In this document: positions 3,901 through 41,923 of the stretch, piece after piece | Position numbering within the stretch: the first letter of the stretch is position 1 | Layout: the number at the start of each line of letters is the position of its first letter | Origin: an uncultured Actinomycetes bacterium | GTDB taxonomy: Bacteria; Actinomycetota; Actinomycetes; S36-B12; UBA5976 | Length of the DNA: 45,408 bases | Reading direction: 5' to 3' | Assembly: GCA_903907835.1 (NCBI GenBank) | Contig: CAIVPQ010000199.1 | Span: 1-45,408, forward strand | Notes under the pieces: generated by a model | Database searches by the model: none | What the model was told of the DNA's origin: nothing | The model's input: the letters and a program-made list of their open reading frames with translations, nothing else | Made by a program: the position numbers and the translations under genes

Positions 3901-3917
3901 AGTTAAACAGAGTTTTT

Positions 3918-3951
3918 AGTAAAGCCCCGACCAATTGGTTGGGGCTTTACT
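3918..3951. terminator. Long hairpin between convergent rpmB and thiL
   Basis: AGTAAAGCCCC (3918-3928) pairs with GGGGCTTTACT (3941-3951), and the intervening ACCAATTGGT is itself palindromic. Only a weak U-tract follows on the + strand. Confidence 0.6.
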
Positions 3952-3984
3952 AATTCAATTTGAAGTAGCTTTGTGAGATTTCTT

Positions 3985-7269: not shown

Positions 7270-7980
7270 TTAACGCGCGACAACAGCCTCTAAGGAGAAT
7301 GAATCTTCTAAACCAAGTTTGTAACCAACACCACGGACTGCTACTCCAACACTTGGACCACCAGCGCTTTTTACCTTGGCGCGCAATCTTGACAAATGTG
7401 ATTCAACAGTGTGGCCATCTCCCTGCCATGAACCCCAAACATTTTCGATTAACTCATGCTTTGGGACTACTCGTCGCGGACTTTCCATCAGAGCGGCCAA
7501 CAGATCGAATTCAATTCGGGTCAAACTAACTTCGGTGCCTTCAAAGACTGCCGTTCGAGCTTCGGTATCCATAGATAGGGGTCCAACCGTCATTAGTGTT
7601 TGTGTTAGCGGGTTTCCGATACTGCGCCTAAGCATTGATTGGACCCTTGCGACAAGCACCTTTGGATAGAACGGTTTCAACATATATTCATCAGCGCCTG
7701 CTGCGAATCCCAAGAGTTGCTCCATTTCGGCAGAATGCGAAGTGAGGAAAAGAACTAGAACGTTACCGAATGATTTAAGCCTGCGACAAAGTTCGAGCCC
7801 ATCCATGTCGCCAGTTTTAAATGAAGTGATTACTAAATCTGGATGATGGGCGTGATAAGCCTGGAGTGCTTCAAATCCGCTACTGGCTTGCACTACACAG
7901 TAACCACTAGAGCGCAAACTCTCACAAATGAGAGCGCGAAGCTGGGCATCTTCATTAACAACAAGTGTGACAGCGACCAT
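7270..7980 (-). CDS. OmpR/PhoB-family response regulator with atypical (pseudo-)receiver domain
   Basis: The N-terminal receiver fold keeps the conserved T (LFLTSHS) and K (MLKPF), and the C-terminal winged helix is present (LTRIEFDLLAAL ... VRGVGYKLG). The phospho-acceptor position reads PDLVITSFKTGDMDG, Ser53 instead of Asp (codon 7822-7824). The acidic pair reads NE instead of DD. No histidine kinase gene is present in the window. Confidence 0.85.
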   Translation of the reverse strand: MVAVTLVVNEDAQLRALICESLRSSGYCVVQASSGFEALQAYHAHHPDLVITSFKTGDMDGLELCRRLKSFGNVLVLFLTSHSAEMEQLLGFAAGADEYMLKPFYPKVLVARVQSMLRRSIGNPLTQTLMTVGPLSMDTEARTAVFEGTEVSLTRIEFDLLAALMESPRRVVPKHELIENVWGSWQGDGHTVESHLSRLRAKVKSAGGPSVGVAVRGVGYKLGLEDSFSLEAVVAR

Positions 7981-8270
7981 AATTTTGAGGCTAACAAAAT
8001 CTTTTTCAACTTTTATCCAGATTTAGCAAAGTTAAAAACACAACGAGATATTCGAAAAGAACAAAGCGTTAATCGGCATAGTAAATTTCACGATCCATGT
8101 ATCAAGAACTAACCCCTCATCTAGATTTTCAACTACCTAGCCAACATGCCTGAACTCTAAATAAAAAAATGTAAACCTGATGCAAGGTTCTTGTGCAGTA
8201 AACGCAACCTCAAAGACGTTGAATGAATTTCAAGTCGCGATTCGCGCGACAGAAAATAGGAGCAATAACA

Positions 8271-8921
8271 ATGAATCAAGATTCAAAACGTGGTGGCGGC
8301 ATTCGCTTAGCCCTAATCGGTGCAATCGGTGCTTCTCTGATGACTGTTGCTGGCGTTGGAGCATTTGCAGGTCTTAATGCGACTGCATCAGCCAGTAATT
8401 CAGTAGATGCAGGGACGCTAAAACTAACTTCGACGAATAAGGGTGCTGGTTTTAGTCAGGCAGTATCCAATTTGGCTCCTGGCGATACCGTTAACCGTTA
8501 TGTCACGCTAACCAATGGTGGAACTCTTAGTGCGAAGAGTTTCTCATTGAGAATCACTTCAACAGGCACCGCGACATTGATCACCAACGGAACAGCTCCA
8601 GCCACAAACAAAGCCATTACGGTCACTGTGAACTCCTGCACTGGAACATGGACTGCAGCCACCGGCGTCTGCAGCGGAACGACCAACACTGAGATTGCGG
8701 CAGCACCATTATCAACGTTTGGTACTGCTCAATCATTTGCAAACACCACAACCTTGGCTTCATTAGCTGATCTGCCACTACAGATTCAGATCAAACTTCC
8801 AGATCAGGATGAAACGACTGTTGATGGCGTTGTTCCTGCTGTAACAGTTCAAGGTGGTTCGGTAGATCTCGACTACCTTTTCTTTGAAGCGCAACGCACT
8901 GTTGCGACAACAAATAGTTAA
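8271..8921 (+). CDS. TasA/camelysin-like secreted protein (candidate major fibre subunit), SipW-type signal peptide
   Basis: ATG 8271 has an AGGAG RBS at 8258-8262. The signal peptide is MNQDSKRGGGIRLALIGAIGASLMTVAGVGAFA, followed by DAGTLKLTS. SNLAPGDTVNRYVTLTNGGTL and the C-terminal LDYLFFEAQR match TasA landmarks recalled from memory. A SipW-type peptidase gene lies downstream. Confidence 0.7.
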   Translation: MNQDSKRGGGIRLALIGAIGASLMTVAGVGAFAGLNATASASNSVDAGTLKLTSTNKGAGFSQAVSNLAPGDTVNRYVTLTNGGTLSAKSFSLRITSTGTATLITNGTAPATNKAITVTVNSCTGTWTAATGVCSGTTNTEIAAAPLSTFGTAQSFANTTTLASLADLPLQIQIKLPDQDETTVDGVVPAVTVQGGSVDLDYLFFEAQRTVATTNS

Positions 8922-8941
8922 TAAACAAAGTTAATACCTCC

Positions 8942-8984
8942 TGTTGTGGGGTGCGCTCATCAGTTGATGGCGCACCCCACAACA
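8942..8984 (+). promoter_or_regulatory. Perfect 15-bp intercistronic stem-loop between the two TasA-like genes
   Basis: TGTTGTGGGGTGCGC (8942-8956) pairs perfectly with GCGCACCCCACAACA (8970-8984) around a 13-nt loop. No U-tract follows. An AAGGAG (8992-8997) lies just downstream. Confidence 0.6.
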
Positions 8985-9020
8985 CGGATTCAAGGAGTGG
9001 CAAAAATATGGGAGATGAAA

Positions 9021-9593
9021 ATGACAAGAATAGGCTTGCGAGTCACTCTGTTATTCCTAGTCGGTTCATTCTTTCTAGCAGCCGCTCTTGTAGTAGACGG
9101 CTATGTTTATGCGAATGCAAAGGCCAGCGCAAAAGGATCAACATCGGTCTCAGTCTTAAAGTGGGGAGCGGTGCTTGCTTCCCCATCGGCAACCCCAGCT
9201 AAAACTCCTTTTGTAATTTCTTGGGCCACTTCCCAAAATCAACAAATCGCTTACCTCGAAGTTGTTAACACGGGGTCACAGTTGATTAGTGGCCAAAGCT
9301 ATTCGATTGACACCAAAGATTCTGAAGGTTCGAGAAAAAATGACCCATCAATAACTTTTACTGCATGCACATCCGGCGTTTGGAACAAAGATACCGATAA
9401 GTGCTCTGGATCAACCAGTGTCATCGGAACAAGGTCCAATGGGACTCTCACTTCAAATTTTAGTTTGGCGCCCTTAGCGCGCCTATCACTCCGGCTTCGG
9501 TTAACGAAAGAAAACAGGGTTGCCTGGACAACCACAATCAACATGAAGATCAATCGCTCACAAATACGAACAGCTACAACAACTAACTCATAA
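9021..9593 (+). CDS. Second, divergent TasA-like secreted protein (candidate minor or accessory subunit)
   Basis: Signal peptide MTRIGLRVTLLFLVGSFFLAAALVVDGYVYANA. It shares VVNTGSQL, a C-x11-C-S-G loop and the C-terminal TTNS with the upstream gene. The start is uncertain (9015 or 9021); the track start at 8946 falls inside the hairpin. Confidence 0.6.
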   Translation: MTRIGLRVTLLFLVGSFFLAAALVVDGYVYANAKASAKGSTSVSVLKWGAVLASPSATPAKTPFVISWATSQNQQIAYLEVVNTGSQLISGQSYSIDTKDSEGSRKNDPSITFTACTSGVWNKDTDKCSGSTSVIGTRSNGTLTSNFSLAPLARLSLRLRLTKENRVAWTTTINMKINRSQIRTATTTNS

Positions 9594-9616
9594 ACCTCAG
9601 GAAGGCTTCCCCCGCC

Positions 9617-10204
9617 ATGACAATTTCGCCCATCACTACTGAGCCATCAACTCACAAACGCACAAGAGCAAAAGATTTCTGGCATGGCTTTAACACCACT
9701 TTGCTCTGGATTGTGGCTATTGGATCGGTAGTTGCAGCAGTGCTAGTTGTAAAGAATCAAATTCACTTCACTCGAGTCTTGTCGGACAGTATGGCACCGG
9801 CATTTCACCGTGGAGATGTCCTGCTTGTTAAACCTTATGCAAAGACTGAGCTTCGCCAGGGGCAGATTGTCGTGTTACCTAATGTTGATAAGGACGGCAG
9901 TCAATATGTCCATCGACTTATTAATGTCGACATCGCAGGCAAACAGGTAAGCGTGGAAACAAAAGGGGATGCGAATCAAGTTAAGGATCCTTGGACCCTA
10001 AACATCAAGTCGAACGAAGTCCCATTGGTTCTTGGACAACTGCCCACCTCCAAGTTGCCATTTGTCGAGTTGAGCCGAAATCAAATCATGCTGTTTATGG
10101 GGCTAATGCTTGTGCTCTTCATTTCGCTTTTTGTTCCAAGCAGCGCATTTCCGCGGTTCTCTCGGCCCGGACATGGCAGACACAAACCAAAGTCAAGAAT
10201 CTAA
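9617..10204 (+). CDS. Signal peptidase I, ER/archaeal (SipW-like) type
   Basis: N-terminal TM segment, Ser box SDSMAP, His in place of the P-type Lys (YVHRLI), TKGDAN box, and a C-terminal TM segment plus a basic tail. It starts 23 nt downstream of the second TasA-like gene. Confidence 0.8.
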   Translation: MTISPITTEPSTHKRTRAKDFWHGFNTTLLWIVAIGSVVAAVLVVKNQIHFTRVLSDSMAPAFHRGDVLLVKPYAKTELRQGQIVVLPNVDKDGSQYVHRLINVDIAGKQVSVETKGDANQVKDPWTLNIKSNEVPLVLGQLPTSKLPFVELSRNQIMLFMGLMLVLFISLFVPSSAFPRFSRPGHGRHKPKSRI

Positions 10205-25237: not shown

Positions 25238-26203
25238 TTAAATGCTTAGTGTGACCTTGTCAGCGTTGAAAGCACCAGGAACTTCTTGACCGCTAAATGC
25301 TGCAACTACTGATTCAGCAACTGCGATACCAGCCTTTTCTTGGGCTTCTTCAGTTGATGCGCCAAGGTGTGGGGTTGCTGTTACCTGCTCGAGAGCAAAT
25401 AGTGGCGAATCAGTGCAAGGCTCTGATGCGTAAACATCAAGTCCAGCGCCTGCTACGCGACCTTCGACGATTGCATCGTAAAGTGCAGCCTCATCAAGTA
25501 CGCCACCGCGAGCAGCATTGATGATTCGTACTGATGGCTTGACCTTTGTTAAGGCTTCAACGCCAATTAGGCCAACGGTCTCCGGCGTCTTTGGAATGTG
25601 GATAGTGATGAAATCAGACTGGGCCAGGAGTTCATCCAGAGAAACCATTTTGATTTCTGGGCCACCAGTTGGTGCCACAGTTACGTAGGGATCGTAAGCA
25701 ACAAAGTTCACATCGAAGCCAGCAAGGCGCTTGGCAACTAGAAGGCCAATCTTGCCCATACCGATGATGCCGATGGTCTTATCTTGAAGTTCGATTCCAC
25801 CAAACTTGGCGCGCTTCCATTCACCATCTTTCAAAGTGATGTTTGCTGGCACAACGTTTCTAGCATTTGCAAGAAGCAGTGCAACCGCAAGTTCAGCAGC
25901 AGAGACAATGTTGCTAGTCGGAGCATTTACCACTAGAACGTTGGCCTCAGTTGCCGCAGGAATGTCAACGTTATCTAGCCCAACACCCGCGCGCGCAATG
26001 ACCTTTAGGTTTGGGGCAGCTGCGATGGCTTCAGCGTCTACTTTGGTTGCCGAACGGACCAAAATTGCATTAGCTTCGGCGATTGCAGGCAGCAATTCAG
26101 CACGATCAGCACCATTGCAATGGCGAATATCGAATGCGTCGCCAAGGACGCCAATGGTGGCTGGTGAGAGTTCTTCGGCGATTAAAACTACTGGTTTTGT
26201 CAT
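25238..26203 (-). CDS. serA: D-3-phosphoglycerate dehydrogenase-like 2-hydroxyacid dehydrogenase, short form without ACT/ASB domains
   Basis: NAD-binding motif GIIGMGKIGLLVAKR with catalytic-region motifs ARGGVLDE and TPHLGAST. It holds the syntenic serA position between ilvC and leuB, but is only 321 aa. Confidence 0.7.
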   Translation of the reverse strand: MTKPVVLIAEELSPATIGVLGDAFDIRHCNGADRAELLPAIAEANAILVRSATKVDAEAIAAAPNLKVIARAGVGLDNVDIPAATEANVLVVNAPTSNIVSAAELAVALLLANARNVVPANITLKDGEWKRAKFGGIELQDKTIGIIGMGKIGLLVAKRLAGFDVNFVAYDPYVTVAPTGGPEIKMVSLDELLAQSDFITIHIPKTPETVGLIGVEALTKVKPSVRIINAARGGVLDEAALYDAIVEGRVAGAGLDVYASEPCTDSPLFALEQVTATPHLGASTEEAQEKAGIAVAESVVAAFSGQEVPGAFNADKVTLSI

Positions 26204-26308: not shown

Positions 26309-27016
26309 TTAAGGAAAGTTTGAGATGTTTTCAAAGTTGGCTACTTCTGGTGGTACTTCATTGCTTGAGTAAGTTTTCACTAAGTGCCCCCACCAAACCC
26401 ATCTACGAGCCGAACCCCACCGCGGATCGCAGGTCACCAATGACATTAAGTTGCTACTCGCGACCTGCCGGGATATCTGACCAGGCTGTTCATCTATGAC
26501 CCAAACATCTCGTGGCTTAACTTTCAAGTCTTTATCTAACACATACACAAACCAATTGTTAAATGTGCGTACATAGATGCGATCTCCACGTTGCAGGCGA
26601 TCAAAGTTGGCAAACGGTTGACCATTCGTAGCGCGATGGCCAGCCAAGGCAAAGTTGCCTCGCTCTCCTGGTAGCGCCGTGCCCAAGTAGTGGCCAACCC
26701 CAGAATTTAACTCACTAGGGTCGACTCCCTCAAGCACTGGTGTTGCCCAGACATGGTTACCCAGCCTCGGAATGTAGAGCAAGGCAAAGGCATCAGACTG
26801 TCGCACTCGGCCAGATTGTGCATAATCATGATCTTTTGTCTGACTTACTGGATCACCTTTTTCCCATTCGGCAAGGAGCCTTTGTCGCACTTCAGTCGCA
26901 CGAACATGCGAGGCATAGTTGGTCCACACGTGTTGGTGAAATGTGAACCCAACTAGCCAAAGCATGCCCGCGCCTGCAAGGACCATGGTCCAAAGCAACC
27001 ATCTGCGGTCGCGCAT
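26309..27016 (-). CDS. Sortase, probably class E
   Basis: N-terminal TM segment WLLWTMVLAGAGMLWLVGF with catalytic His (LAGHR), Cys (LVTCDP) and Arg (ARRWVWWG). The ATG is 11 nt downstream of the stop of an LAFTG-bearing substrate gene. Confidence 0.85.
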   Translation of the reverse strand: MRDRRWLLWTMVLAGAGMLWLVGFTFHQHVWTNYASHVRATEVRQRLLAEWEKGDPVSQTKDHDYAQSGRVRQSDAFALLYIPRLGNHVWATPVLEGVDPSELNSGVGHYLGTALPGERGNFALAGHRATNGQPFANFDRLQRGDRIYVRTFNNWFVYVLDKDLKVKPRDVWVIDEQPGQISRQVASSNLMSLVTCDPRWGSARRWVWWGHLVKTYSSNEVPPEVANFENISNFP

Positions 27017-27027
27017 GGCCCACTGTC

Positions 27028-30000
27028 CTAGTATTCGTAGATTCGGCGACGTCGATTAGCAAGGTAGCCCACGATAGCCAGGCCACTGAATATGACGGAG
27101 ATCAACTGCCAGTGACTTCCGTCCACGCCAGTGAAAGCAAGCTGTCCAGCACGTGGGTAACACCCTGGATCTGCTGTAATCGGGACTGGTACTCGAGTAG
27201 TGGATGTAGTGATGCGCACTTCAACAACCGCCTTTGAGTGGATGCTGTAGAACGGAGCAGAAGGGTTCAGCACCCAGCGACCATCGGATGATTTGTAGCG
27301 GCCTGGATAAGCCAAGATGGTTCCGTCTGAGGTAAAACTGACACCAGGCCAGTAGAAGAAGCCCTCAATCAACTGGCCTTGTTTCCAACCAGCTGGTGTT
27401 GTCACATAGTCCACTCTCAGGGCACCGTTAGCCAACAGTGCGGCTGTATCCATCGCATCAATATCAATGTCCTGATCTCGGTATCCACCAGGAGTCCACC
27501 AAATTAGCGCCACAGTGATAGGTGAGCCAGGACTTGCTGGATTTCCATACAGCGGGATGCTGTAATCCATAGTCAAAATGTTGTTTCGACAAGTCGCCTC
27601 AGGGTCAAGCGCGACTGCCTCAATCGGGGTGGAATCTTGCGAACAGTTGTTCTCTGTACTGACCTCGATGCCACTCGTTGATACGCACGCAATATTAATG
27701 AGGGATGGAATCGTAACTTCTGAGAAGTCGATTGGTCGAGTGATTACTGCGGTAAAGACAATTGTTGATGAAGCACCTGGCGCCAAAATTCCACTATTGC
27801 CAATATACTTGGCGGTGAAGAGCCCTAGCGTGCTGGCCGAAGTATCCCAATCCGGTGCCACAATTGAATCAAAATCAATCTCCAATGCGTCTTCAATATC
27901 ATCAGTCACAACAACATCAAGCGCGTCATCGAAACCTGCAAGTTTGCCCGAGTTGGTCACCGTTAACTCGTAGGTGATGGGGCTGGTTGACTTGCCATTG
28001 ACTGCAGAATTACCAGTTGGCACTGTGTGCTTCTTGATGATGGTCAGGTCCATCGCATTGATGTAGTGCGAGTTGTCACAGCCAGTCTCTGGTGACAACT
28101 CTGGTGGAGTCACCTCTTCATCGGAAATCTCACAATCACCACCATCGCCTGGTGTCACAAGATTTATCAGATCTAGTCCGGCGGCGTCCGCGTCAATAGT
28201 GATGACGTAATTAACAGATGTGGATTGACCTGGGGCAAGTGTCGGGATTGCCCATGTCATCGTTACGCCATCAGGCTCCATTGTTAAGCCCTGAGCTAAA
28301 GGCAATGTCAGAGCAGCCTTATCAAGCACCTGCGACATGTCATCAATAGCTGTCGCGCCAATCACTGTGGCTTGAGAGTCATTGCGAGCCGTCATTGTGT
28401 AAGTCACAACTTGGTTCGGCTCCAGCACCACGCCATTTCCGGGATCCGATGTTTTTGAAATTAAGAAGTGCGGAGTGAAGTTTTCTGTCTCACAAGATTC
28501 AACACAACTTCCACCTGTTGGGGGCGTAACAACATTTGATAATGTCACGCCGTATGCCCCTTCACTCACCGTCACGTCATATGTCAGTGTGGCTGAACTG
28601 CTCACTGCCCCTGCATTCCAAGTCAAAGTTGTCTCGGTCAGGCTTGCTTCACCTGAATCGACTTGAATGGTGCCAAAAGCAGCATGATTTAACACACTAC
28701 TTAAGTCATCGGTCACCACAACATCAGTTGGCATCGCACCTGACGTGCGAGTCAAGGTAACTGTGTAAGTTATTTTCTCGCCAGGATTAACAGGTGATCC
28801 AGTCGCAGGATCACTGGTCTTGTTTACAGTCCAAGTGGCTGGAATGGCGGTGTTGATGATTTCGCAAGACACATCCTGACCGGGTGCCACATTAACAACA
28901 TTCCCTACAACTGGCACATCGCCACAGTCCCACTGTGATGCCGTGTATCCATCAGGACCAGACTCGCTCAGAGTGTAACTACCCACTTGAACTGTGCTCT
29001 TGGTCCCTGAAGTAACACCTGTGATGTTAGTTGGACCACTTGCTGACAGGGACCAATCCGTTGCCGTGAAGGTGGCACCTGTCTCACCGTTTTCTACTGA
29101 CTTATTCAAAGTAAGCGTTGGAGCAATCGCTGTATTGGTGACCGTGCAAGTAACGTCATCACCAAGCGACATCGAAACGACATCCCCTTGCATCTCAGCC
29201 TCACCACAATCCCAGGCCGATGCGGTGTAACCATCAGGACCAGACTCACTCAATGCGTAGTCGCCGATTTTTACTGGGTTTACAGCACCAGAGGCAACTT
29301 CCTCAATTGCTGTAGGACCACTAGCCGAGAGCAGCCAATCCGCCGGTGTGCCAGCAGCACCCGTATCACCGTTATCAACGATCTTCTTCAAAGTCAGAAG
29401 TGGCGTTGTTGCAGTATTAGTAATTGTGCAAGAGATGTCTTGACCAACACCTACAACCACAACACCGGAAGTCACACTTGCACTGCCACAATCCCAAACT
29501 GAGGAAGCATAGCCAGAGGCCCCAAGCTCACTCAAGGTGTAAGAACCAACCTGGACAGTAGTTTTTGTACCGGTCAGAACACCTGAAACATTTGTTGGTC
29601 CATCTGCGGACAGTGACCAATCTGTTGACACATGGGTTGCGCCTGTATCACCGTTAACGACGACCTTGTTGAGAGTCAACGAAGATGTCTCTGCCGTGTT
29701 TGTGATTGTGCAAGAGATATCCTGACCAACTGGAACTAGAACACTACCCTCGACAACGGCTGCGTTGCCACAATCCCAATCTGATGCTGTGTATCCATCA
29801 AGTCCAGATTCGCTCAATGAGTAAGTACCAACCTGAACTGTAGTTTTAGTTCCGCTTGCAACTTGATTGATTGCAGTTGGTCCAGAAGCAGATAACTTCC
29901 AATCACTAGCTGTATGTGTTGCTCCTGTTTGCCCGTTGTCAACCACCTTGTTCAAAGTCAAGGTCGGAGCGACAGCTGTATTTGTGACCGTGCAAATGAT

Positions 30001-33000
30001 GTCTTCACCTAGCTCAACAGATACTGTGCCATCGATTATTTCCGCATCATTGCAAACCCACGTGGAAGCTGTATAACCACCAGGACCGGACTCGCTCAAA
30101 GTGTAGGTACCAATCTGAACCACTCTTTGAGTACCTGGCGATACCTGCGAGATAGCGGTTGGGCCACTAGCTGACAAGGTCCAGTCTGAAGCAACATTCG
30201 TTGCACCAGTTGTGCCATTGTCGACCGACTTATTCAAAGTCAGCGTTGAGCTTTGTGCAGTGTTAGCGACCGTGCAAGTAATTTGCTGGCCAACTCCAAC
30301 TGTTACTACACCTTCACGAATAGGGGCATCGCCACAGTTCCAAGCTGAAGCGGTATACCCAGTTGGACCAGATTCACTGAGTGTGTAGTCGCCAACTTTA
30401 ACGATTGACTTTGTCCCAGATGTCACGTCAGGAATAGTCGTTGGCCCGTTAGCCGACAGTGACCAATCAGCAGCCACTGCAGTGGCACCCGTCTGCGCGT
30501 TATCAACAGTCTTGACCAAAGTCAGGGAAGCGCTTTGGGCAATATTTGTAATCTCGCAAGTGACCTCTTGACCCACCCCAACTGTTACAACACCATCGAT
30601 CAATGTGGCAGTGCCACAATCCCAGTCAGATGCGGTGTAACCATCTGGACCTGACTCGCTCAAGGTGTAATCGCCTACCTTAACGAATGACTTTGTACCA
30701 GAGGCAACATCAGTGACCTGCGATGGGCCACTTGCAGACAAAGACCAATCATTCGCGACATACGTAGCACCGGTTTCACCGTTGTCTACATTTTTTATAA
30801 GTGTCAAAGCAGCGGATTGAGCCGTGTTAGTGACGGAACACACTATTTTTTGACCAAGGGCTACCGATATTTTGCCATCTACAACGCTGGTATTCCCACA
30901 ATCCCAGACAGAAGCCGAGTATCCGTCAGGACCTGACTCGCTCAAGGTGTATTGCCCAATTTGGACCTGCGATTCAGTGCCGCTCAATACTGAACTGACA
31001 ATTGTTGGACCATCTGCAGACAGTGCCCAATCAGCAGGAGTATAGGTTGCACCAGATGTTCCATTGTCAACGATCTTGTTCAAGGTCAAGGTAGACATTA
31101 CTGCTGTGTTCGTAATTGAACACACAACATCCTGACCCAATTCAACCGTGACAACACCATTGACCACATTTGCATCGCCACAGGCCCAATCCGAAGATGT
31201 GAAACCTATCGGACCAGACTCAGACAAGACGTAGTCACCAATTTTTACAGTTGTCTGTGTACCCGAAGTAACCCCATCGATTGCTGTTGGACCTGCCGCT
31301 GACAGCTCCCAGTCAGCAAAAGTGAAACCTGCACCTGTGTTCCCATTATCAACGACCTTGATTAAGGTCAATGACGAATCTTTGGCGACATTTGTCACGG
31401 TACAGGTGACATCCTCACCCAAGGCAACAGTCACAACTCCTGAGGTAACGTCCGCATCACCACAATCCCACAAGGACGCTGTATAACCATCTGGGCCAGC
31501 TTCACTAAGGGAGTACTGTCCAATCTCCACTGTCGATTTTGTACCGGAAGCTACGGAACTAATCGTCGTTGGACCAGTTGCAGACAAAGTCCAATCATCA
31601 ACAGTTTGAGTGGAGCCAGTTTGTCCATTATCAACTGACTTCACCAAAGTAAGCGAAGATGCGATAGCTGTATTGGTAACCGAACAAACCACATCCTGTC
31701 CCAGCGGAATGGAAACAACATTTCCCACTAAGGTTGCACTGCCACAGTCCCACGATGAAGCGCTATAACCCGATGGGCCAGATTCACTCAATGTGTAATT
31801 ACCAATTTTTGCAGTGGACTTGGTGCCCGTTGAGACTGATGTAATTGAAGTCGGACCTGTTGCTGAAAGTGACCATTCAGCGGCGGAATGTGTTGCGCCA
31901 GTGGTCCCGTTCACTACAACTTTCTCGAGAGTTAGCGATGGAGCAATTGCAGTATTCGTGATGGTACACACGATGTCCTGACCTAGTTCAACTGTCACTA
32001 CTCCGCCAACGACATTTGCACTGCCACAATTCCAAGCAGATGCCGAGAATCCACTTGGGCCAGATTCACTCAATGTGTATGCGCCACTGGCCACAAAAGT
32101 CTTCGTTCCAGGACTCACATCTGACACGGCAGTTGGGCCAGCTGCTGAAAGCGACCAGTCGGTTGCTACCTGATCTGCACCAGTATCACCATTGATAACT
32201 ACCTTGTTCAAAGTCAAAGAAGGAAGCACTGCCATGTTTGTGATTGTGCAGGTGACATCTTCGCCGGCAACGATGACAACTACATTGCTTTCAGGTCGGC
32301 CAGTGACTGGATCTTGTCCAGTACATACCCACGTACCTTCAACGGTGTAGCCATTCCACTGTGCGCTTTCCGACATGGAGTAAGAACCAGGAATAACCGT
32401 ATGGGTCACACCTGTTGCTGAATCCACAATCTGTGAGCCAGTTGAACCACCATCGGCCGACAGTGTCCAATCAGCTGAAGTCTTTGTTCCACCTGTGTTT
32501 CCATTGTTGACAGACTTCACCAATGTCAAAGTTGCGCGCTTAGGCGTGGTGTGGGTTGTCGTGCAATCAGCAAGAACTTCACACGAACCTGAATCACCTG
32601 GGGTGACAACATTCTTGATGATTGCATCATATGCATCAGATTTGACTGTCACGGTGTAACTAATGGTCTTGGTCTGACCAGCAGTCAGATTTCCAATTGC
32701 CCAGGTCAAAGTTGATCCCACCTTGGTAAGGCCAGTCGGTAAAACTCCTAGAGTTGCATCATCGAGTACATCGCTAATGTCATCGGTTGCTTGTGCTCCC
32801 AATACAAGTACATCGGTTGGGTTAGATGCGCTGAGCGTATAGGTTATTGAATCGCCAACATTGACCGTTGTGCCTGTCGTTGGCGAGGATGACTTACTTA
32901 ACTTCCATTGACCTGGCTTTTGCTTGTTGGTGAACAAGCAGGACATCGGAACATCTGGAGCACCAATGAATGTTGCCGTTGTCCCATTCATTGTTGTTTC

Positions 33001-34653
33001 AACCGAAACGCCAGCAACCGAGCATTGCGCACTTACAAATGTGTACTGCGAGTTCAGATCTTCAGTAACGGAGACTGTGGGCGTTTGGCCTGCTGGGACA
33101 CTGACGGCCGCACCAGCAAAACCATTTTGATCATTAACTTGCGCAGTAGTTGAACTAGGGTCAATCGTGCTCCCAGCCGAGATTGAGTTAGTGAAATTCC
33201 AACCATTTGTCAGTGCGGAATTTGGCAACAGCGTGCCAGTTGGATCTTGTATAACCTTTTGAATCGTCAACTGGTTGTTGCAGCTACCAGCAGCTAAATC
33301 CTGAAGAATCTGACCGAAAGATGCAGAGCTAGCTAGGTAGTAATCCTGATTCAAGGTTGCACCTGAAACAGCACGTAAGTTTTCAGTTGACCCACTCAGG
33401 CCGATACCAACACCAATGAGTGTTGAGCCACCAGATTTAATCTCATTAGCTGAAAAAATACCTTGATCAACATACTGAAAATAGGTGGAGTTGCCGACCC
33501 CGGCATTATTTCCATACGTTGTGGGAGCCCCGTCAGTAAGAAATATCACAAGGTCAAATCCCGCAGGGACCTGGTGTAATCCGGCATCCCAGTTGGTTGA
33601 ACCACTCGGCGTACCCAAATTATCAATGAAAGTGTGCAGTGGGGTTGCTGATGCGAGCGACACTGTGGACGTACTAGCAACAGAAGCGCCAACGACTGAA
33701 GAAAATGTGTAAATGGCGAGACTTGATGGAGTGCCAGTTAGCGCTGTAATAGTGTCATCCGCAGCCAACTTTAGTGCCGTCTGTTTACTACCAGACATTG
33801 ATCCTGATTGATCCAGAACAAGTGCAACATCAAGTCCGCACTTTTGGGACATGGCTGGATTATTGAGGGAAGCTGATAAGAGGCCGCTGAAGTTGTTGTT
33901 TCCTGGGTGTCTGATGTCCGAGTAGGTGCTATTTGGGTTAGCGCCAGGAACGTCGATGTTGGAAGTAACAATTCCAGTGCGGAATTCGTATGTTTCGGCA
34001 GTCAAAGTTGAAGAGCCGCCAAAATCTAAACTCGGGTTGGCGTAGTAACCACTTGGAACTGCGGATTGTGAAATATTCCAAGCAAAGCCAGATGGCACCT
34101 CAATCTCGCAGGTTCCAGTTCCACCAGTTGTTGTGCAAGTAAATGGCCCGCCAGTTGGACTGCCCGAAACAGGTGTTGCAGTAAAGATTGCTCCATTCGG
34201 CATCGCAGATACTGTGGTTGCACCAGTTCGCACTCCACCCGCGTGAACAGTAATTATGGCTGGACCTGAGTAGGTGAATGTACATGTGGCATTTCTACCC
34301 GACTGATTAGGAAAAGTTACAGTCTGAGCGGCTAAATCAAAGGTCACGTTTGAATTTCCTGTACAAACGAATGACTGCGAATAACCTGACGGCCCACCAG
34401 TAGATGTAACTGAATATGTTGCATTTCTAGCAACGCTCTTGGAATCACCTGAAGTGAATGTGTATGAGTCACCATTGTGCGTTGCCCCAAGCGCCCAATC
34501 AGCGGGGGTGGCAGTGCCACCATTAACGACATTGACAAGTGTCAAGGTTGAACAGTTTGATACACAAATAGGATCTACTGCAGCATAAGCCGGCACAGCT
34601 ACCTGGCCTGACATCAGTACTGCAAAAATACTCGCGATACTAATGCGTGCCAT
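27028..34653 (-). CDS. Giant cell-wall-anchored fibrillar adhesin-like protein (~2541 aa from ATG 34653)
   Basis: The signal peptide is MARISIASIFAVLMSGQVAVPAYA. The head holds SpaA/CnaB-like domains and a VWA domain with a DQSGS MIDAS motif. The stalk holds a DUF11-like domain, 13 tandem CnaB/SpaA-like repeats and three more DUF11-like domains. The protein ends in an unassigned ~150-aa domain and LAFTG + TM + RRRR. The start is uncertain: the frame is open up to 34764, with another ATG at 34740. Confidence 0.85.
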   Translation of the reverse strand: MARISIASIFAVLMSGQVAVPAYAAVDPICVSNCSTLTLVNVVNGGTATPADWALGATHNGDSYTFTSGDSKSVARNATYSVTSTGGPSGYSQSFVCTGNSNVTFDLAAQTVTFPNQSGRNATCTFTYSGPAIITVHAGGVRTGATTVSAMPNGAIFTATPVSGSPTGGPFTCTTTGGTGTCEIEVPSGFAWNISQSAVPSGYYANPSLDFGGSSTLTAETYEFRTGIVTSNIDVPGANPNSTYSDIRHPGNNNFSGLLSASLNNPAMSQKCGLDVALVLDQSGSMSGSKQTALKLAADDTITALTGTPSSLAIYTFSSVVGASVASTSTVSLASATPLHTFIDNLGTPSGSTNWDAGLHQVPAGFDLVIFLTDGAPTTYGNNAGVGNSTYFQYVDQGIFSANEIKSGGSTLIGVGIGLSGSTENLRAVSGATLNQDYYLASSASFGQILQDLAAGSCNNQLTIQKVIQDPTGTLLPNSALTNGWNFTNSISAGSTIDPSSTTAQVNDQNGFAGAAVSVPAGQTPTVSVTEDLNSQYTFVSAQCSVAGVSVETTMNGTTATFIGAPDVPMSCLFTNKQKPGQWKLSKSSSPTTGTTVNVGDSITYTLSASNPTDVLVLGAQATDDISDVLDDATLGVLPTGLTKVGSTLTWAIGNLTAGQTKTISYTVTVKSDAYDAIIKNVVTPGDSGSCEVLADCTTTHTTPKRATLTLVKSVNNGNTGGTKTSADWTLSADGGSTGSQIVDSATGVTHTVIPGSYSMSESAQWNGYTVEGTWVCTGQDPVTGRPESNVVVIVAGEDVTCTITNMAVLPSLTLNKVVINGDTGADQVATDWSLSAAGPTAVSDVSPGTKTFVASGAYTLSESGPSGFSASAWNCGSANVVGGVVTVELGQDIVCTITNTAIAPSLTLEKVVVNGTTGATHSAAEWSLSATGPTSITSVSTGTKSTAKIGNYTLSESGPSGYSASSWDCGSATLVGNVVSIPLGQDVVCSVTNTAIASSLTLVKSVDNGQTGSTQTVDDWTLSATGPTTISSVASGTKSTVEIGQYSLSEAGPDGYTASLWDCGDADVTSGVVTVALGEDVTCTVTNVAKDSSLTLIKVVDNGNTGAGFTFADWELSAAGPTAIDGVTSGTQTTVKIGDYVLSESGPIGFTSSDWACGDANVVNGVVTVELGQDVVCSITNTAVMSTLTLNKIVDNGTSGATYTPADWALSADGPTIVSSVLSGTESQVQIGQYTLSESGPDGYSASVWDCGNTSVVDGKISVALGQKIVCSVTNTAQSAALTLIKNVDNGETGATYVANDWSLSASGPSQVTDVASGTKSFVKVGDYTLSESGPDGYTASDWDCGTATLIDGVVTVGVGQEVTCEITNIAQSASLTLVKTVDNAQTGATAVAADWSLSANGPTTIPDVTSGTKSIVKVGDYTLSESGPTGYTASAWNCGDAPIREGVVTVGVGQQITCTVANTAQSSTLTLNKSVDNGTTGATNVASDWTLSASGPTAISQVSPGTQRVVQIGTYTLSESGPGGYTASTWVCNDAEIIDGTVSVELGEDIICTVTNTAVAPTLTLNKVVDNGQTGATHTASDWKLSASGPTAINQVASGTKTTVQVGTYSLSESGLDGYTASDWDCGNAAVVEGSVLVPVGQDISCTITNTAETSSLTLNKVVVNGDTGATHVSTDWSLSADGPTNVSGVLTGTKTTVQVGSYTLSELGASGYASSVWDCGSASVTSGVVVVGVGQDISCTITNTATTPLLTLKKIVDNGDTGAAGTPADWLLSASGPTAIEEVASGAVNPVKIGDYALSESGPDGYTASAWDCGEAEMQGDVVSMSLGDDVTCTVTNTAIAPTLTLNKSVENGETGATFTATDWSLSASGPTNITGVTSGTKSTVQVGSYTLSESGPDGYTASQWDCGDVPVVGNVVNVAPGQDVSCEIINTAIPATWTVNKTSDPATGSPVNPGEKITYTVTLTRTSGAMPTDVVVTDDLSSVLNHAAFGTIQVDSGEASLTETTLTWNAGAVSSSATLTYDVTVSEGAYGVTLSNVVTPPTGGSCVESCETENFTPHFLISKTSDPGNGVVLEPNQVVTYTMTARNDSQATVIGATAIDDMSQVLDKAALTLPLAQGLTMEPDGVTMTWAIPTLAPGQSTSVNYVITIDADAAGLDLINLVTPGDGGDCEISDEEVTPPELSPETGCDNSHYINAMDLTIIKKHTVPTGNSAVNGKSTSPITYELTVTNSGKLAGFDDALDVVVTDDIEDALEIDFDSIVAPDWDTSASTLGLFTAKYIGNSGILAPGASSTIVFTAVITRPIDFSEVTIPSLINIACVSTSGIEVSTENNCSQDSTPIEAVALDPEATCRNNILTMDYSIPLYGNPASPGSPITVALIWWTPGGYRDQDIDIDAMDTAALLANGALRVDYVTTPAGWKQGQLIEGFFYWPGVSFTSDGTILAYPGRYKSSDGRWVLNPSAPFYSIHSKAVVEVRITTSTTRVPVPITADPGCYPRAGQLAFTGVDGSHWQLISVIFSGLAIVGYLANRRRRIYEY
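27031..27141 (-). other. Cell-wall sorting signal LAFTG, hydrophobic segment and RRRR tail
   Basis: LAFTG is encoded at 27127-27141 and is followed by VDGSHWQLISVIFSGLAIVGYLANRRRRIYEY and the stop. Confidence 0.85.
28834..32532 (-). repeat. 13 tandem in-frame coding repeats (one divergent 105-aa copy plus 12 copies of exactly 94 aa / 282 nt)
   Basis: Consensus LTLxKxVxNGxTGATxxxxDWxLSAxGPTxIxxVxSGTKxxVxxGxYxLSESGPxGYxASxWDCGxAxVxxGVVxVxxGQDxxCxITNTA. Copy 2 starts at 32217 and copy 13 ends at 28834, which is 3384 nt = 12 x 282 with no indels. The copies have diverged at the DNA level; I saw no long identical stretches. Confidence 0.9.
33280..33840 (-). other. von Willebrand factor A domain with MIDAS motif inside the adhesin
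   Basis: CGLDVALVLDQSGSMSGSKQTALKLAADD..., with DxSxS encoded at 33799-13. The later LTDGAPT motif is typical of VWA domains. Confidence 0.75.
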
Positions 34654-34807
34654 TCGTTGAGATTTTCGGATTTGCTTGTGCAATTTATGCTGTGGGGCTC
34701 GTAGAGCAGATTGTTTTTTCCAGGCGCCATATATGTTCATGTGGTTGACGTTAAAACACAACAATCACAGACGACTCACGCGATTCTCACGGAAAACTCA
34801 CATTAGT

Positions 34808-34843: not shown

Positions 34844-34858
34844 AAACGAAAAATTGAA

Positions 34859-35932
34859 TTATTGGGCGATGTGGAAATCAAACGCTTGGGCGATAGCAAC
34901 ATCAATTGCAGCCAAGGCCAACTCGACCCGAGTTTCAACACTGCCATCCAAAGCTGCCCATGCTCGGCCTGTGCTGATTAATTCGTCCTCAAATTCTTCA
35001 GTCATACTCTCTCGCAAGTTTTCGCTATCGCGAATCTTGTCTTGAACGAATGGCACACCCTCTGGCTGAGTCACAAAATAAATGCGATTCTGTGAATTTG
35101 CCGGCATTGGCAAACTTGTTTTGGCGCCTAGATATCGACGTTCCCAGATCAAAGTCGCAAATACATCAGTGTCACAGCACACAACCGGTCCCCCAGTTCT
35201 GGCTGCCACATCTTCAAGCTGTTGTTGGACTACGGCGATTTCAACAAAGTCAGTGGGAGTCCATGGCACAGCATATTCAGAAAGGCCCATTGCTTCGGCT
35301 TGTTCCTTTTTGCGCATAGTCAGATCTCGACCATATTCACGAATCCAATTGGTCTGGCGAAAATTGGCTCCGCGAGCTATTAAAGCTGCTTGCACTGCAA
35401 GAGTCGTTGTTGTCGTGCCAGTTGATTCAGCACCAACAAATACCGCACGAATTGAAAGTAGTTCGCGAGAACCTGGACCTAATAAATGCCAGTTGCCAAC
35501 TAGGTCAGCGCGAATCTGAGTTGATGACACCGGTACCTGAGTGCGATCTATGTCAAAACTGAAATGATGAAGGCCAAGCATGTTCGCGAATGACTCACCA
35601 TTTGCCTCTGATGTAACTAGCATGTCAACAGGCGGAGTGTGGCGTAGATGAGCCTGAATCACTCGAGCGTTTGATTGTGCGACTGCTGGATTCTCTGGTT
35701 CATACGGCGTTGATTCGTAACCATGCACAATCGTCATGTTCGATTCAGTTACACCCTCAGCAATGCAGTCCTGAGCTAAGGCTTTTGCGCGATCTGGAGC
35801 GCTCACTCGATCATGTGGTTGAGCCAAGACAATAACAACAACATGGTCACGCTTTTCAATGGCAGCCTTAATTAGTTTCACATGACCCATGTGAGGTGGA
35901 TTAAATGTCCCAGTAATTAATGCAGCAGGCAT
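34859..35932 (-). CDS. NadR-like bifunctional NMN adenylyltransferase / ribosylnicotinamide-kinase-like protein (no HTH)
   Basis: The N-terminal nucleotidyltransferase motifs GTFNPPHMGH and VSSTQIR are present. The C-terminal P-loop domain reads GAESTGTTTT, with Thr where the Walker A Lys is expected. Confidence 0.7.
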   Translation of the reverse strand: MPAALITGTFNPPHMGHVKLIKAAIEKRDHVVVIVLAQPHDRVSAPDRAKALAQDCIAEGVTESNMTIVHGYESTPYEPENPAVAQSNARVIQAHLRHTPPVDMLVTSEANGESFANMLGLHHFSFDIDRTQVPVSSTQIRADLVGNWHLLGPGSRELLSIRAVFVGAESTGTTTTTLAVQAALIARGANFRQTNWIREYGRDLTMRKKEQAEAMGLSEYAVPWTPTDFVEIAVVQQQLEDVAARTGGPVVCCDTDVFATLIWERRYLGAKTSLPMPANSQNRIYFVTQPEGVPFVQDKIRDSENLRESMTEEFEDELISTGRAWAALDGSVETRVELALAAIDVAIAQAFDFHIAQ

Positions 35933-36042: not shown

Positions 36043-37080
<1,038 letters not shown>

Positions 37081-39670: not shown

Positions 39671-41923
39671 ATGAGTGAATTGCCAACATACAAAGACCCT
39701 GCTGCTTCGATTGATGAAAGAATCACTGACCTTATTCAGCGGATGACCCTTCCTGAAAAAGTCGGACAAATGTTGCAACTCGATGCCCGCGAGAACATAA
39801 CTGGCTTAATTGCAGATTTTCATGTTGGCTCAATTTTGCACACATCTCCTGAGGACATGATCCTTTCGGCCAAATTAGTGGCCGAAACCCGCTTACAGAT
39901 TCCGCTTCTAACCGCTGATGACTGCATCCACGGACACTCATTTTGGCCAGGAGCAACAATCTTCCCCACTCAACTTTCGATGGCTTCTTCGTGGGATTCA
40001 GATTTGATTGAGCGTGTAGCGCGCGTCACTGCAGTAGAGGTTTCTGCAACTGGTCTGCATTGGACCTTCTCCCCCGTACTTTGTATCGCTCGGGATCTTC
40101 GTTGGGGACGTGTTGGTGAGACATTCGGTGAAGACCCATTCCTTATCGGCGAGATGGGTGTTGCTATGGTTCGCGGATACCAAGGCGCTGGGCTTGATGA
40201 TGAAACGGCAATCTTGGCCTGTGCGAAACACTACGTTGGATACTCAGAAACTCAAGGTGGTCGCGATGCAACCGAAGCAGACTTGAGTCCGCGTAAGTTA
40301 CGTTCTTGGTTCTTGCCACCATTTGAGCGCGCTGCCCGTGAGGGTTGTCGTACATTCATGCTGGGCTATCAGGCCATCGATGGTGTGCCAATCACAATGA
40401 ATAAGTGGGCACTAAATGATGTGCTCAAGAATGAATGGGGTTTCACTGGAACCTTAATTACTGACTGGGACAACGTAGGTCGAATGGTTTGGGAACAACA
40501 GATTCAACCTGACCATGCATCTGCTGCAACGGCTGCAGTTCTTGCGGGCAATGACTTAGTTATGACTACACCCGGATTCTTCGAAGGTGCTCAAGAGGCA
40601 ATCTCTCGCGGAATGATTACCGAGGCTCACATTGATGCTGCGGTCACCCGAATTCTTCGTCTGAAATTTGAATTAGGTCTTTTTGAAAATCCGCGTCTAC
40701 CTGATGCAGTTCGCCAGGCAGTTGTTATTGGCTCACCGGAACACAGTGACTTGAACCTTGAGGTAGCTCGACGTTCACTTGTCCTACTCCAAAATGATGG
40801 CACTTTGCCTATTTCGCCTAGTACAACAGGTGCTAAGAAGATTGCTGTTGTTGGTCCAAATGCTCATGACCAGCATGCGCAACTTGGTGACTGGGCTGGA
40901 GCATCTGGCCAAGTTGATTGGATGCCAGATGGTCATCCGCGTCACCTAACCCAAACTGTTTTTGATGGTTTGAAACTCATTGCCCCTAGTGACTGGGAAG
41001 TCACCTACAACCAAGGTGCAGACATCGCAATCTTGACCCCAGACCCAGAAGGCGAAACATTTGCTGACGGTCAGCCACGTCCACCGATTGCCGCACCTGC
41101 ACCAGTCGATGCGGACATGATTGCCGAAGCCGTTGCTGCAGCCAATGAGGCTGACTACGTAGTAGCAGTTGTCGGCGACATGATTGCCTTGATCGGCGAA
41201 GGACGATCAACTGCGACACTGGAACTATTCGGCGCACAGAATGCTTTGCTTGATGCACTTGCCGCAACAGGCAAGCCAATGATTGTCGTGCTGATCAGTT
41301 CAAAGCCACAGATTCTTCCTGAATCTGCCCTTAACGCTGCAGCAATTATCAATGCCTTTAATCCAGGTATGCGCGGTGGAACAGCTATTGCCGAAATGAT
41401 CTTTGGCGAAATTGAACCAAGTGGACGCTTGCCGATTACCTTTGCTCGTCACGCTGGACAACAGCCGATTTATTACAACCAACTGCGTGGACAACATGGA
41501 CATCGCTACGCGGATCTGACTCAAGATCCGATGTTCGCATTCGGCGAGGGACTATCGTATTCACACGTTGAGTACAGCAACTTAGTGATTACCAAAACTG
41601 AGCTAACTCGCGCTGACACAATCGATGCGCAAATCACTTTGACTAATACTGGGTCGCGACCATCACTTGAAACTGTGCAAATCTATTTCAGCGACTTGGT
41701 AACTAGCATCACTTGGGCTGATAAGGAACTAAAGGGCTACGAGCAAGTTCTTGTCGGACCTGGTGAAACTAAAGTCATTGACCTTAAATTGCCAGTAGCA
41801 GATTGCACAATTGTTGACGCCGATTCCAACAGGATTGTTGAACTCGGGGAATTCGCGTTGTTGGTTGGTCGCAGTTCACGAAATCGTGACCTACAACGCG
41901 CTTTGTTTACAGTGACTAGTTAG
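39671..41923 (+). CDS. Glycoside hydrolase family 3 beta-glucosidase, no signal peptide
   Basis: KHYVGYSETQGGRD motif and nucleophile region GFTGTLITDW, with a C-terminal fibronectin-like domain, 750 aa. The N-terminus is MSELPTYKDPAASIDERI, with no hydrophobic leader. Confidence 0.85.
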   Translation: MSELPTYKDPAASIDERITDLIQRMTLPEKVGQMLQLDARENITGLIADFHVGSILHTSPEDMILSAKLVAETRLQIPLLTADDCIHGHSFWPGATIFPTQLSMASSWDSDLIERVARVTAVEVSATGLHWTFSPVLCIARDLRWGRVGETFGEDPFLIGEMGVAMVRGYQGAGLDDETAILACAKHYVGYSETQGGRDATEADLSPRKLRSWFLPPFERAAREGCRTFMLGYQAIDGVPITMNKWALNDVLKNEWGFTGTLITDWDNVGRMVWEQQIQPDHASAATAAVLAGNDLVMTTPGFFEGAQEAISRGMITEAHIDAAVTRILRLKFELGLFENPRLPDAVRQAVVIGSPEHSDLNLEVARRSLVLLQNDGTLPISPSTTGAKKIAVVGPNAHDQHAQLGDWAGASGQVDWMPDGHPRHLTQTVFDGLKLIAPSDWEVTYNQGADIAILTPDPEGETFADGQPRPPIAAPAPVDADMIAEAVAAANEADYVVAVVGDMIALIGEGRSTATLELFGAQNALLDALAATGKPMIVVLISSKPQILPESALNAAAIINAFNPGMRGGTAIAEMIFGEIEPSGRLPITFARHAGQQPIYYNQLRGQHGHRYADLTQDPMFAFGEGLSYSHVEYSNLVITKTELTRADTIDAQITLTNTGSRPSLETVQIYFSDLVTSITWADKELKGYEQVLVGPGETKVIDLKLPVADCTIVDADSNRIVELGEFALLVGRSSRNRDLQRALFTVTS

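Follow-up and report, generated by a model that had tools for sequence, protein, structure and literature searches.

The locus described here raises the question of whether a gene for a giant surface protein and the sortase gene that follows it suffice, between them, to display this protein on the cell wall. Both genes lie on contig CAIVPQ010000199.1 (assembly GCA_903907835.1) of an uncultured Actinomycetes bacterium; "the window" denotes the whole stretch of DNA that was analyzed, 45,408 nucleotides (nt) in length. Taken together, the evidence makes it very probable that they constitute a two-gene, self-sufficient surface-display module of a freshwater actinobacterium, composed of a stalked adhesin and a class E sortase. 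Going by the relatives closest to it in the databases, this organism is Nanopelagicales-like. That the pair is a self-contained cassette of substrate and enzyme had been proposed in a first-pass annotation of the same DNA, and this proposal was borne out, since a sister lineage lacks both genes together and the two recur, again paired, at other sites.

On the minus strand, the adhesin open reading frame (ORF) covers 27028..34764 at its maximum length, according to the ORF listing and its translation. The protein comprises 2541 amino acids (aa) when counted from ATG 34653 and 2570 aa when counted from ATG 34740; the residue numbers given here start at ATG 34653. A frame of ∼2,550 codons in DNA of 49% G+C, which in addition contains 14 recognizable domain repeats, is far beyond what chance would produce. 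As the first-pass annotation had stated, this one gene encodes a signal peptide, an adhesin-like head, a repeat stalk, and an LAFTG motif followed by a transmembrane segment and RRRR, all of which are found in the sequence. The C-terminus reads QLAFTG-VDGSHWQLISVIFSGLAIVGYLAN-RRRRIYEY-stop, with LAFTG at aa 2505-2509 (nt 27127-27141). The features of a sortase substrate, that is, an N-terminal signal peptide (aa 1-24, preceded by a 29-aa extension if translation starts at 34740), and an L(P/A)xTG motif with a hydrophobic segment and a basic tail behind it, are present in this protein, signal peptide and sorting signal having been judged by inspection of the sequence. No second ORF with a sorting signal was found in the window. 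The stop codon of the adhesin (TAG, 27028-27030) is separated by only 11 nt (GACAGTGGGCC) from the ATG of the sortase gene at 27016, a spacing that had been read correctly in the first place.

The product of the second gene matched the Pfam family Sortase (peptidase C60, PF04203) over aa 80-213 with 104.7 bits (cut-off 26.6) and the NCBIfam model class_E_sortase (NF033747) with 195.7 bits (cut-off 160). It remained below the cut-off on the models for class D (79.6 versus 140 and 66 versus 165 bits), class C (58.7 versus 160), class F (22.6 versus 166), and class GN (36 versus 158), and no class A or class B model was among its NCBIfam matches. The best relatives of solved structure, 5GO6/5GO5 (127 bits; presumably SrtE3 of Streptomyces avermitilis) and 5CUW (SrtE1; 83 bits), are class E enzymes. 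His127 (within AGHR), Cys196 (VTCDP), and Arg205 (ARRWV) align with His251, Cys320, and Arg329 of SrtE1, and aa 6-26 form an N-terminal membrane anchor, in agreement with the membrane-anchored sortase with intact His/Cys/Arg triad that had been annotated. Tyr110 (VGHY) aligns with Tyr229 of SrtE1 (VGHY in 5CUW, LGHY in 5GO6), the residue of the β3/β4 loop that was proposed to select Ala at position P3 of LAxTG (Kattke et al; PMC5148588). By all features that can be addressed at the sequence level, the enzyme belongs to class E, as "class-E-like" had suggested, and clustering with class C or class A was not seen. The family to which it belongs, and the conservation of its residues for catalysis and specificity, suggest that it cleaves LAFTG and joins the adhesin covalently to the wall.

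The sorting signal is preceded by a predicted β-sandwich, the pre-anchor domain, for which the searches returned no annotated counterpart: it had no Pfam match even at E≤1, a scan of the whole protein gave no NCBIfam match over the region, and the comparison of its model with the Protein Data Bank (PDB) yielded nothing better than E=1.9e-3 or a TM-score of 0.32. A word-indexed search returned 3 close fragments only, hence representative proteins were searched exhaustively; among 1.84 billion of them, only 71 clusters contain relatives of the domain. The motif ALIWW and the terminal Cys pair C2355/C2498 are invariant, or nearly so, and in all but one of the hits listed with at least 300 aa, the match ends within ∼65 residues of the C-terminus. 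A recognizable sorting signal is present in 57 relatives, 41 of which have Ala at P3. Spanning of the wall, or presentation of the signal to the sortase, are guesses at what the domain does. For the adhesin and the sortase, a look-up of cluster names returned nothing beyond "uncharacterized repeat protein (TIGR01451 family)" and "class E sortase".

Homologous adhesin-sortase pairs were found at three other genomic sites, on freshwater metagenome contigs, and all have an L(A/P)xTG motif. In the first arrangement, upstream of ilvB (contigs L084, L085, L091, and L099), the sortase is 65-67% identical to that of the window and starts 14-15 nt after the stop codon of a cargo of the same family (72% identical; LAFTG), which in L099 has 3135 aa and ∼20 repeats. 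IlvB of this genome is 93% identical to that of the window, so the proteins of the cassette (65-72%) diverge much faster than the housekeeping proteins next to them. In the second, beside argH (L088-L090), the sortase is 50% identical, and the divergently transcribed cargo of 1329 aa (LAHTG) has the same head (63%) and tail (45%) and only 1-2 stalk repeats. The third lies beside leuS (L106-L108) and combines a sortase of 38% identity with a cargo of 2402 aa from the same family (LPHTG). The number of stalk repeats across the homologues consequently ranges from ∼1-2 to ∼20. Sortases of 45-49% identity (L093-L095 and L102) occur at different sites together with an unrelated Flg_new/Big_9 cargo of 1250-1350 aa (LANTG, LADTG), whose stop codon is overlapped by the sortase gene. 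Finally, sortases of 42-44% identity and without cargo (L096, L104, and L105) stand in the order crgA-(DUF881)-sortase-small ORF-GATase-pknB-pbpA-rodA-fhaAB. This is presumably the position of srtE1/srtE2 in Streptomyces coelicolor, in the crgA-pknB region. At five of the six sortase-linked locus types, the adjacent cargo ends in LAxTG (LAFTG twice, LAHTG, LANTG, and LADTG), and at one in LPHTG. In a rough neighbor-joining tree, the sortases group by cargo type; it is likely, as judged from these sequences, that the enzyme of the window sits in a class E sub-clade that travels with the adhesin family as its cargo. Scanning metagenomes with the sortase gave four loci, L099 among them, which is too few for statistics.

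The nearest genome record, L001 (VFKC01000045.1; metagenome-assembled genome "Actinomycetota bacterium Bin_68_4"), has proteins 97-99% and DNA ∼90.5% identical to the window. In L001, ilvB-ilvN-ilvC-nadR-serA-pirin are contiguous; homology to the window stops at 34858, directly after the nadR stop codon, and resumes at 26253 (blastn break points), and what lies between, present in the window only, is the adhesin gene with its leader and the sortase gene. The nadR-like gene had been counted as part of the insertion. Because the cassette-free sister L001 has ilvBNC-nadR-serA, it is not; nadR is also kept next to ilvC in L002 and L005. More distant relatives contain other, unrelated genes in this interval, which is therefore a variable spot. 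Inspection of the junction sequences (26254/34857) and a repeat search revealed neither a target-site duplication nor a terminal inverted repeat, and among the ORFs of 150 aa or more in the 45-kb window, the great majority of which were annotated, none has an integrase or transposase domain, in line with the earlier statement that none is nearby. A mobile element (insertion sequence, transposon, or integrative island) was rejected for want of a recombinase gene, terminal repeats, and a target-site duplication, and a foreign origin by composition was rejected on account of the G+C content of the cassette (0.48-0.51), which is the same as that of its flanks. A close relative does without the pair, and its location and size differ from genome to genome; on sequence comparison, this marks it as an accessory, niche-dependent surface trait; the "strong selection for surface attachment" read into it earlier was, for the same reasons, an overstatement.

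These comparisons bear on the alternative that survives best, namely, that the adjacent sortase is the only, general housekeeping class E enzyme of the organism, standing by chance beside the largest of many LAxTG substrates. Class E sortases have been described as housekeeping enzymes (PMC8225981), and with 45 kb of the genome seen, other substrates may be encoded elsewhere; in L088, a secreted collagen-like protein is encoded nearby, though it was rejected as a second substrate because it has no sorting signal. However, sortase and cargo are absent together from L001, where both flanks are intact, the two are found side by side at four different genomic sites, the clade to which a sortase belongs follows the type of its cargo, and the housekeeping sortases of the crgA-pknB type are only 42-44% identical to the enzyme of the window. 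The gene is not at that canonical position (crgA-pknB, without adjacent substrate), which defines the canonical role and not membership in class E, but between cargo and serA. Chance adjacency of a general enzyme is accordingly considered unlikely.

The distal head of the adhesin was modeled with AlphaFold2 (pLDDT 88.5; pTM 0.85), and the top Foldseek matches of this model were RrgA (2WW8) and SpaC (6M3Y), followed by other vWFA domains; the model also resembles the VWA domain of the inter-alpha-inhibitor heavy chain. All residues of the metal-ion-dependent adhesion site (MIDAS; DxSxS...T...D) are present (D281, S283, S285, T353, and D374), and none of them varies in an alignment of 17 diverged homologues, a constancy that speaks for metal-dependent binding as a conserved function. 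The head presumably binds its ligand through a metal ion; candidate ligands are particles, algae or cyanobacteria, and other cells. The fibre could, instead, be a protective or spacing coat (a shield against phages or grazers, or a device affecting buoyancy or drag) or a decoy, with a VWA head that has no specific ligand. Presence/absence and variation in length are typically seen in surface structures on which phages or grazers exert pressure, and the host, going by where its relatives come from, seems to belong to a planktonic freshwater lineage, one that does not live attached by default. With a MIDAS that is invariant in all 17 homologues and with proven adhesins as the closest structures, a mere coat or decoy is nevertheless quite improbable.

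Across the adhesin, Pfam detected SpaA_2 14 times (E=0), DUF7927 three times, and DUF11 four times. Thirteen of the SpaA_2 domains follow each other in tandem, the first with 104 aa and the other 12 with exactly 94 aa (282 nt). LTLxK...YxLSE...CxxxN is retained in all 13, together with a Cys pair (spaced by 20 residues; 25 in the first copy). According to the motif table, Lys/Glu/Asn triads are present in 13 of the 14 SpaA_2 copies, the N-terminal SpaA_2-like domain being without one, and Lys/Asp/Asn triads in three DUF7927 copies. The DUF7927/DUF11 region also has a weak NCBIfam match to TIGR04226 (isopeptide-forming domain; 29.9 bits, cut-off 30). SpaA_2, SpaA_4, DUF7927, and DUF11/CLIPPER domains are predicted to form intramolecular Lys-Asn isopeptide bonds, often combined with disulfides in Actinomycetota (PMC12617251). 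Judged by its motifs, the stalk is most likely a covalently stapled rod of ∼17 Ig-like domains (13 SpaA_2 and four DUF7927/CLIPPER-like). An Ig-like domain contributes ∼4 nm, from which a length of several tens of nanometers can be roughly estimated.

Because the best structural matches of the head are the pilus-tip adhesins RrgA and SpaC, and the stalk domains come from families related to SpaA-type pilins, the protein might be regarded as the tip pilin of a sortase-assembled pilus, with the neighboring sortase as the enzyme that links it covalently to shaft pilins. This is very unlikely, given that the enzyme passed the class E model and reached barely more than a third of the cut-off on the class C model (58.7 of 160 bits), that a second ORF with a sorting signal is missing from the window and a shaft or base pilin gene flanks none of the homologous cassettes, and that the adhesin already possesses a stalk of its own with ∼17 domains.

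The integrity of the long ORF was assessed by comparison with independent assemblies (ERZ27313280, ERZ18637907, and ERR4194048), none of which has more than one mismatch to the window over stretches of up to 20.7 kb. Two samples (L081 and L082), in which the identical ORF is present, span the whole adhesin gene, one being identical and the other having 1 mismatch in 20.7 kb, and a third assembled the 3' end of the adhesin gene and the sortase gene identically; the stalk repeat count is the same in all three assemblies. The 12 regular repeats are 50-69% identical at the protein and 55-66% at the DNA level, with a longest exact DNA match between copies of 24 nt, and the homologues of 1,329, 2,402, and 3,135 aa are intact as well. 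Thus, even though there are 13 tandem repeats with a 282-nt period and one short-read contig (L083) ends inside the gene, an assembly artefact from mis-joined repeats, or a decaying gene, is hardly credible, because the repeats have diverged, every one of them keeps its triad and Cys pair, and the independent assemblies agree on an uninterrupted ORF, as originally annotated.

With these alternatives weighed, the self-sufficient display module would operate as follows. The adhesin precursor would be exported via Sec by its N-terminal signal peptide and held in the membrane by the C-terminal hydrophobic segment and the Arg-rich tail, whereupon the co-encoded, membrane-anchored sortase would cut LAFTG between Thr and Gly and transfer the adhesin to lipid II or the peptidoglycan cross-bridge. 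The mature adhesin is predicted to be a single-chain fibre, in which the wall-proximal β-sandwich is followed by the Ig-like domains, most of them with Lys-Glu/Asp-Asn triads for self-forming isopeptide bonds and many also with a Cys pair. This stalk would project the distal, RrgA/SpaC-like VWA/MIDAS head for metal-dependent ligand binding. In effect, the structure would be a pilus in one polypeptide, anchored and not polymerized. In the same-strand versions, where the sortase gene begins 11-15 nt after its cargo, the enzyme would be supplied whenever the cargo is made, an arrangement that is not obligatory.

Several points weigh against such a module. Cleavage at LAFTG, wall linkage, the isopeptide bonds, metal binding, and adhesion itself are all predictions from the sequence. 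The window makes 45 kb of the genome visible, and a housekeeping sortase near crgA, if there is one, might anchor the adhesin and render the adjacent enzyme redundant. Pro occupies P3 in 14 of the 57 pre-anchor domain relatives with a sorting signal and in the one sortase-adjacent family member with LPHTG, so that the preference for Ala is a tendency, not a rule. The neighbor-joining tree of the sortases carries no support values. In two homologous arrangements (L088 and L107), the sortase gene is transcribed divergently, and tight same-strand coupling is therefore not essential. Finally, both directions of change, gain in the lineage of the window and loss in L001, fit the presence/absence pattern.

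The start of the adhesin gene had been placed at ATG 34653. It is probably ATG 34740, 87 nt further upstream, because the homologue in L099 (72% identical) has a Leu codon where ATG 34653 stands in the window and because the 29 codons upstream of that position are conserved between the two, the differences inspected there being synonymous (local nucleotide alignment). The leader that precedes ATG 34740 is conserved with the L099 cassette although the latter is found at a different genomic site, and is therefore probably the cassette's own 5' untranslated region or promoter-proximal region, a function suggested by this conservation. Regarding the N-termini of the family, those of three distant homologues (P0129, P0152, and P0174) begin with MRTRR, which resembles a twin-arginine (Tat) motif and continues with SSF in P0129 and P0152; the hydrophobic core follows ∼25-40 residues later, an unusual distance for a Tat signal. 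The Lys/Arg-rich 29-aa extension of the adhesin in the window is, unlike these, without an RR pair.

Table 1. Coordinates of the adhesin-sortase cassette, its parts, and other features of the window (aa numbering from ATG 34653).
Feature	Position (nt)	Strand	Residues or length	Remarks
Adhesin gene	27028..34740	minus		Probable start ATG 34740; stop TAG 27028-27030
Leader	34741..34793	minus	∼53 nt	Conserved with L099 cassette (local nucleotide alignment)
Secretion signal	34582..34740	minus		Basic 29-aa N-terminal extension, then MARISIASIFAVLMSGQVAVPAYA; cleavage site between AYA and A
N-terminal degenerate SpaA_2-like domain	34270..34545	minus	aa 37-128	Pfam SpaA_2, 28 bits on the segment
Adhesive head	32929..34269	minus	aa 129-575	β-sandwich, VWA, second β-sandwich
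VWA domain	33274-33831	minus	aa 275-460	PF00092, 29 bits (cut-off 23.8), segment scored alone
DUF7927 (CnaA/CLIPPER-like) domain	32539..32916	minus	aa 580-705	Pfam; Lys/Asp/Asn triad WKLSK...TDD...NVVTP
Stalk, 13 tandem SpaA_2 domains	28834..32529	minus	aa 709-1940	Pfam; 282-nt periodicity
Three further DUF7927/DUF11 (CLIPPER-like) domains	27718..28833	minus	aa 1941-2312	Pfam; two with clear Lys/Asp/Asn triads
Pre-anchor β-sandwich domain	27160..27702	minus	aa 2318-2498	AlphaFold2 pLDDT 77.7
Cell-wall sorting signal	27031..27141	minus		LAFTG, hydrophobic segment, RRRRIYEY (translation)
Class E sortase gene	26309..27016	minus	235 aa	Downstream of adhesin
Presence/absence segment	26254..34857	.	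8,604 bp	29 unrelated nt in L001
Short serA-like gene	25238-26203			Pfam/NCBIfam annotation
nadR-like gene	34859-35932			Pfam/NCBIfam annotation
ilvC	36043-37071			Pfam/NCBIfam annotation
OmpR-type response regulator	7270-7980	minus		Adjoins candidate fibre cluster
TasA/camelysin-like (Peptidase_M73) ORF	8223-8921			Candidate fibre cluster
Unassigned ORF	8946-9593			No NCBIfam match; candidate fibre cluster
SipW/archaeal-type signal peptidase I	9617-10204			TIGR02228, 67 bits (cut-off 51.85); after the two fibre-cluster ORFs
Small ORF after sortase	L093 10681-10833; L096 10744-10941; L102 7282-7434; L103 10741-10914; L104 10741-10941			On the contigs named

Compared with known systems, the sortase shares the catalytic triad, the loop Tyr, the N-terminal membrane anchor, and an LAxTG substrate with the characterized class E enzymes (SrtE1/SrtE2 of S. 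coelicolor, 5CUW; the 5GO5/5GO6 enzyme; Corynebacterium SrtF/Cg-SrtE; and Actinomyces oris SrtA). The latter are housekeeping enzymes with many substrates, and class E sortases are usually seen as general anchoring enzymes of this kind, whereas the enzyme of the window belongs to a sub-clade with a genetic link to a single giant cargo, and a sister lineage does without this enzyme. RrgA of Streptococcus pneumoniae and SpaC of Lactobacillus rhamnosus GG share with the adhesin head a VWA domain with intact MIDAS flanked by Ig-like β-sandwiches, and all three are sortase substrates, the adhesin by prediction. RrgA and SpaC, however, have ∼800-900 aa and are mounted by a class C sortase on a shaft of separate pilins, whereas here head and stalk form one polypeptide of ∼2,550 aa with class E anchoring, and identity is only 11-14%.

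Periscope proteins have near-identical DNA repeats that change in number within a species. The adhesin was not assigned to them, its repeats being old and diverged (55-66% at the nt level) and their count the same in three assemblies; as stalk length differs between lineages only, it is not evidence of rapid phase-like variation. From the signal peptide through the distal adhesive domain and the tandem Ig-like stalk to the wall anchor, the adhesin is laid out like the fibrillar adhesins and Periscope proteins SasG, Aap, and Sgo_0707 (PMC8201768, PMC9210967), and the stalk is built from the same families as the isopeptide-domain stalks with CLIPPER/DUF11, SpaA_2, and DUF7927 (PMC12617251). The logic of one sortase with one adjacent VWA target is also that of the dedicated sortase system of proteobacteria (TIGR03784 sortase, TIGR03788 VWA target, and TIGR03787/03785 two-component system). 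The window differs from it in that TIGR03784 scores 36 bits (cut-off 158), TIGR03788 is not matched, and the cassette contains no regulator; by these sequence matches, the module is an analogue and not a member of that system. A response regulator does adjoin the sortase gene in L085, L091, L099, and L106-108. It was rejected as a part of the module, as it is absent from the cassette of the window; these regulators are mutually 36-48% identical and have generic OmpR-family matches only, none of which reaches the cut-off.

Sortases encoded beside their substrates, fibrillar adhesins with a VWA head, and isopeptide stalks are established already, and current understanding is not overturned. What is modestly new is an accessory, cargo-linked class E sub-clade, the recombinase-free presence/absence and relocation of the cassette in planktonic freshwater Actinobacteria, where the adhesin-sortase pair is gained, lost, or relocated as a unit, and a small, previously unannotated pre-anchor family, nearly confined to the C-terminal end of L(A/P)xTG proteins. 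A literature search on sortases in Nanopelagicales found nothing, and one in the wider literature on freshwater Actinobacteria and giant genes found nothing relevant. In practice, the cassette offers a marker for strain-level differences in surface attachment that can be scored by polymerase chain reaction in aquatic microbiology, and the compact pair of enzyme and substrate is suited to tests of LAxTG specificity. A more far-reaching idea is offered tentatively and with considerable doubt: such pairs might be portable, recombinase-free "attachment cassettes" of genome-streamlined freshwater Actinobacteria, the gain, loss, relocation, or change in stalk length of which switches cells between free-living and attached (or phage- and grazer-exposed) states. 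A lineage without the cassette could then not anchor the fibre, and the pre-anchor β-sandwich, ALIWW motif and terminal disulfide included, would serve to dock this particular cargo or to span the wall and would co-evolve with the sortase clade.

The rest of the window is a housekeeping block (leuA/B/C/D, ilvE, gltX, ilvBNC, ilvD, ddl, and others). What the first-pass annotation said of the surroundings held for the neighbors (nadR-like gene, ilvC, and serA-like gene) and for this block, and failed for the inclusion of nadR in the insertion and for an "ilvC terminator": a consensus scan found no terminator-like hairpin between ilvC and nadR, nor one after the sortase gene, and promoter and terminator sites were, on the whole, no more numerous than in shuffled sequence. 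In the product of the nadR-like gene, a cytidylyltransferase-like (NMN adenylyltransferase) domain and a kinase domain (AAA_28) were matched, but none that binds DNA. Between ilvC and serA, this gene is found only in the closest relatives (L001, L002, and L005); it is missing from L006, L011, L014, and L037. The serA-like gene is a short form of 321 aa. Of the 525 positions in the PGDH model, it matches only 2-316 (403 bits, cut-off 454) and is thus without the region where full-length PGDH has its regulatory domains; more distant relatives (L006, L014, and L037) have forms of 528-553 aa. Close relatives differ on either side of the ilvBNC(-nadR) block. Upstream of ilvB, the window has a divergent GH3 glycosidase gene (39671-41923), in the place of which L099 (578-11428) and L091 have the adhesin-sortase cassette and a response regulator.

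Two further observations concern the related loci. In L088, the adhesin homologue of 1329 aa is followed closely by genes for a LuxR-type regulator and for a secreted protein of 350 aa that is collagen-like (Gly-X-Y; 3609-4661). At the loci of the crgA type and at those with the Flg_new cargo, the final base of the sortase ORF is also the first of a conserved small membrane ORF (50-66 aa). Where it was read (L093, L096, and L103), it begins with MYxxxWRxLPG and contains VFPxL; in L102 and L104, it was recognized by matching size and position. It is absent after the sortase gene of the window. Elsewhere in the window, the region 7270-10204 may hold a second, sortase-independent surface-fibre cluster, consisting of a TasA/camelysin-like and an unassigned ORF followed by a SipW-type signal peptidase gene and adjoined by an OmpR-type response regulator.

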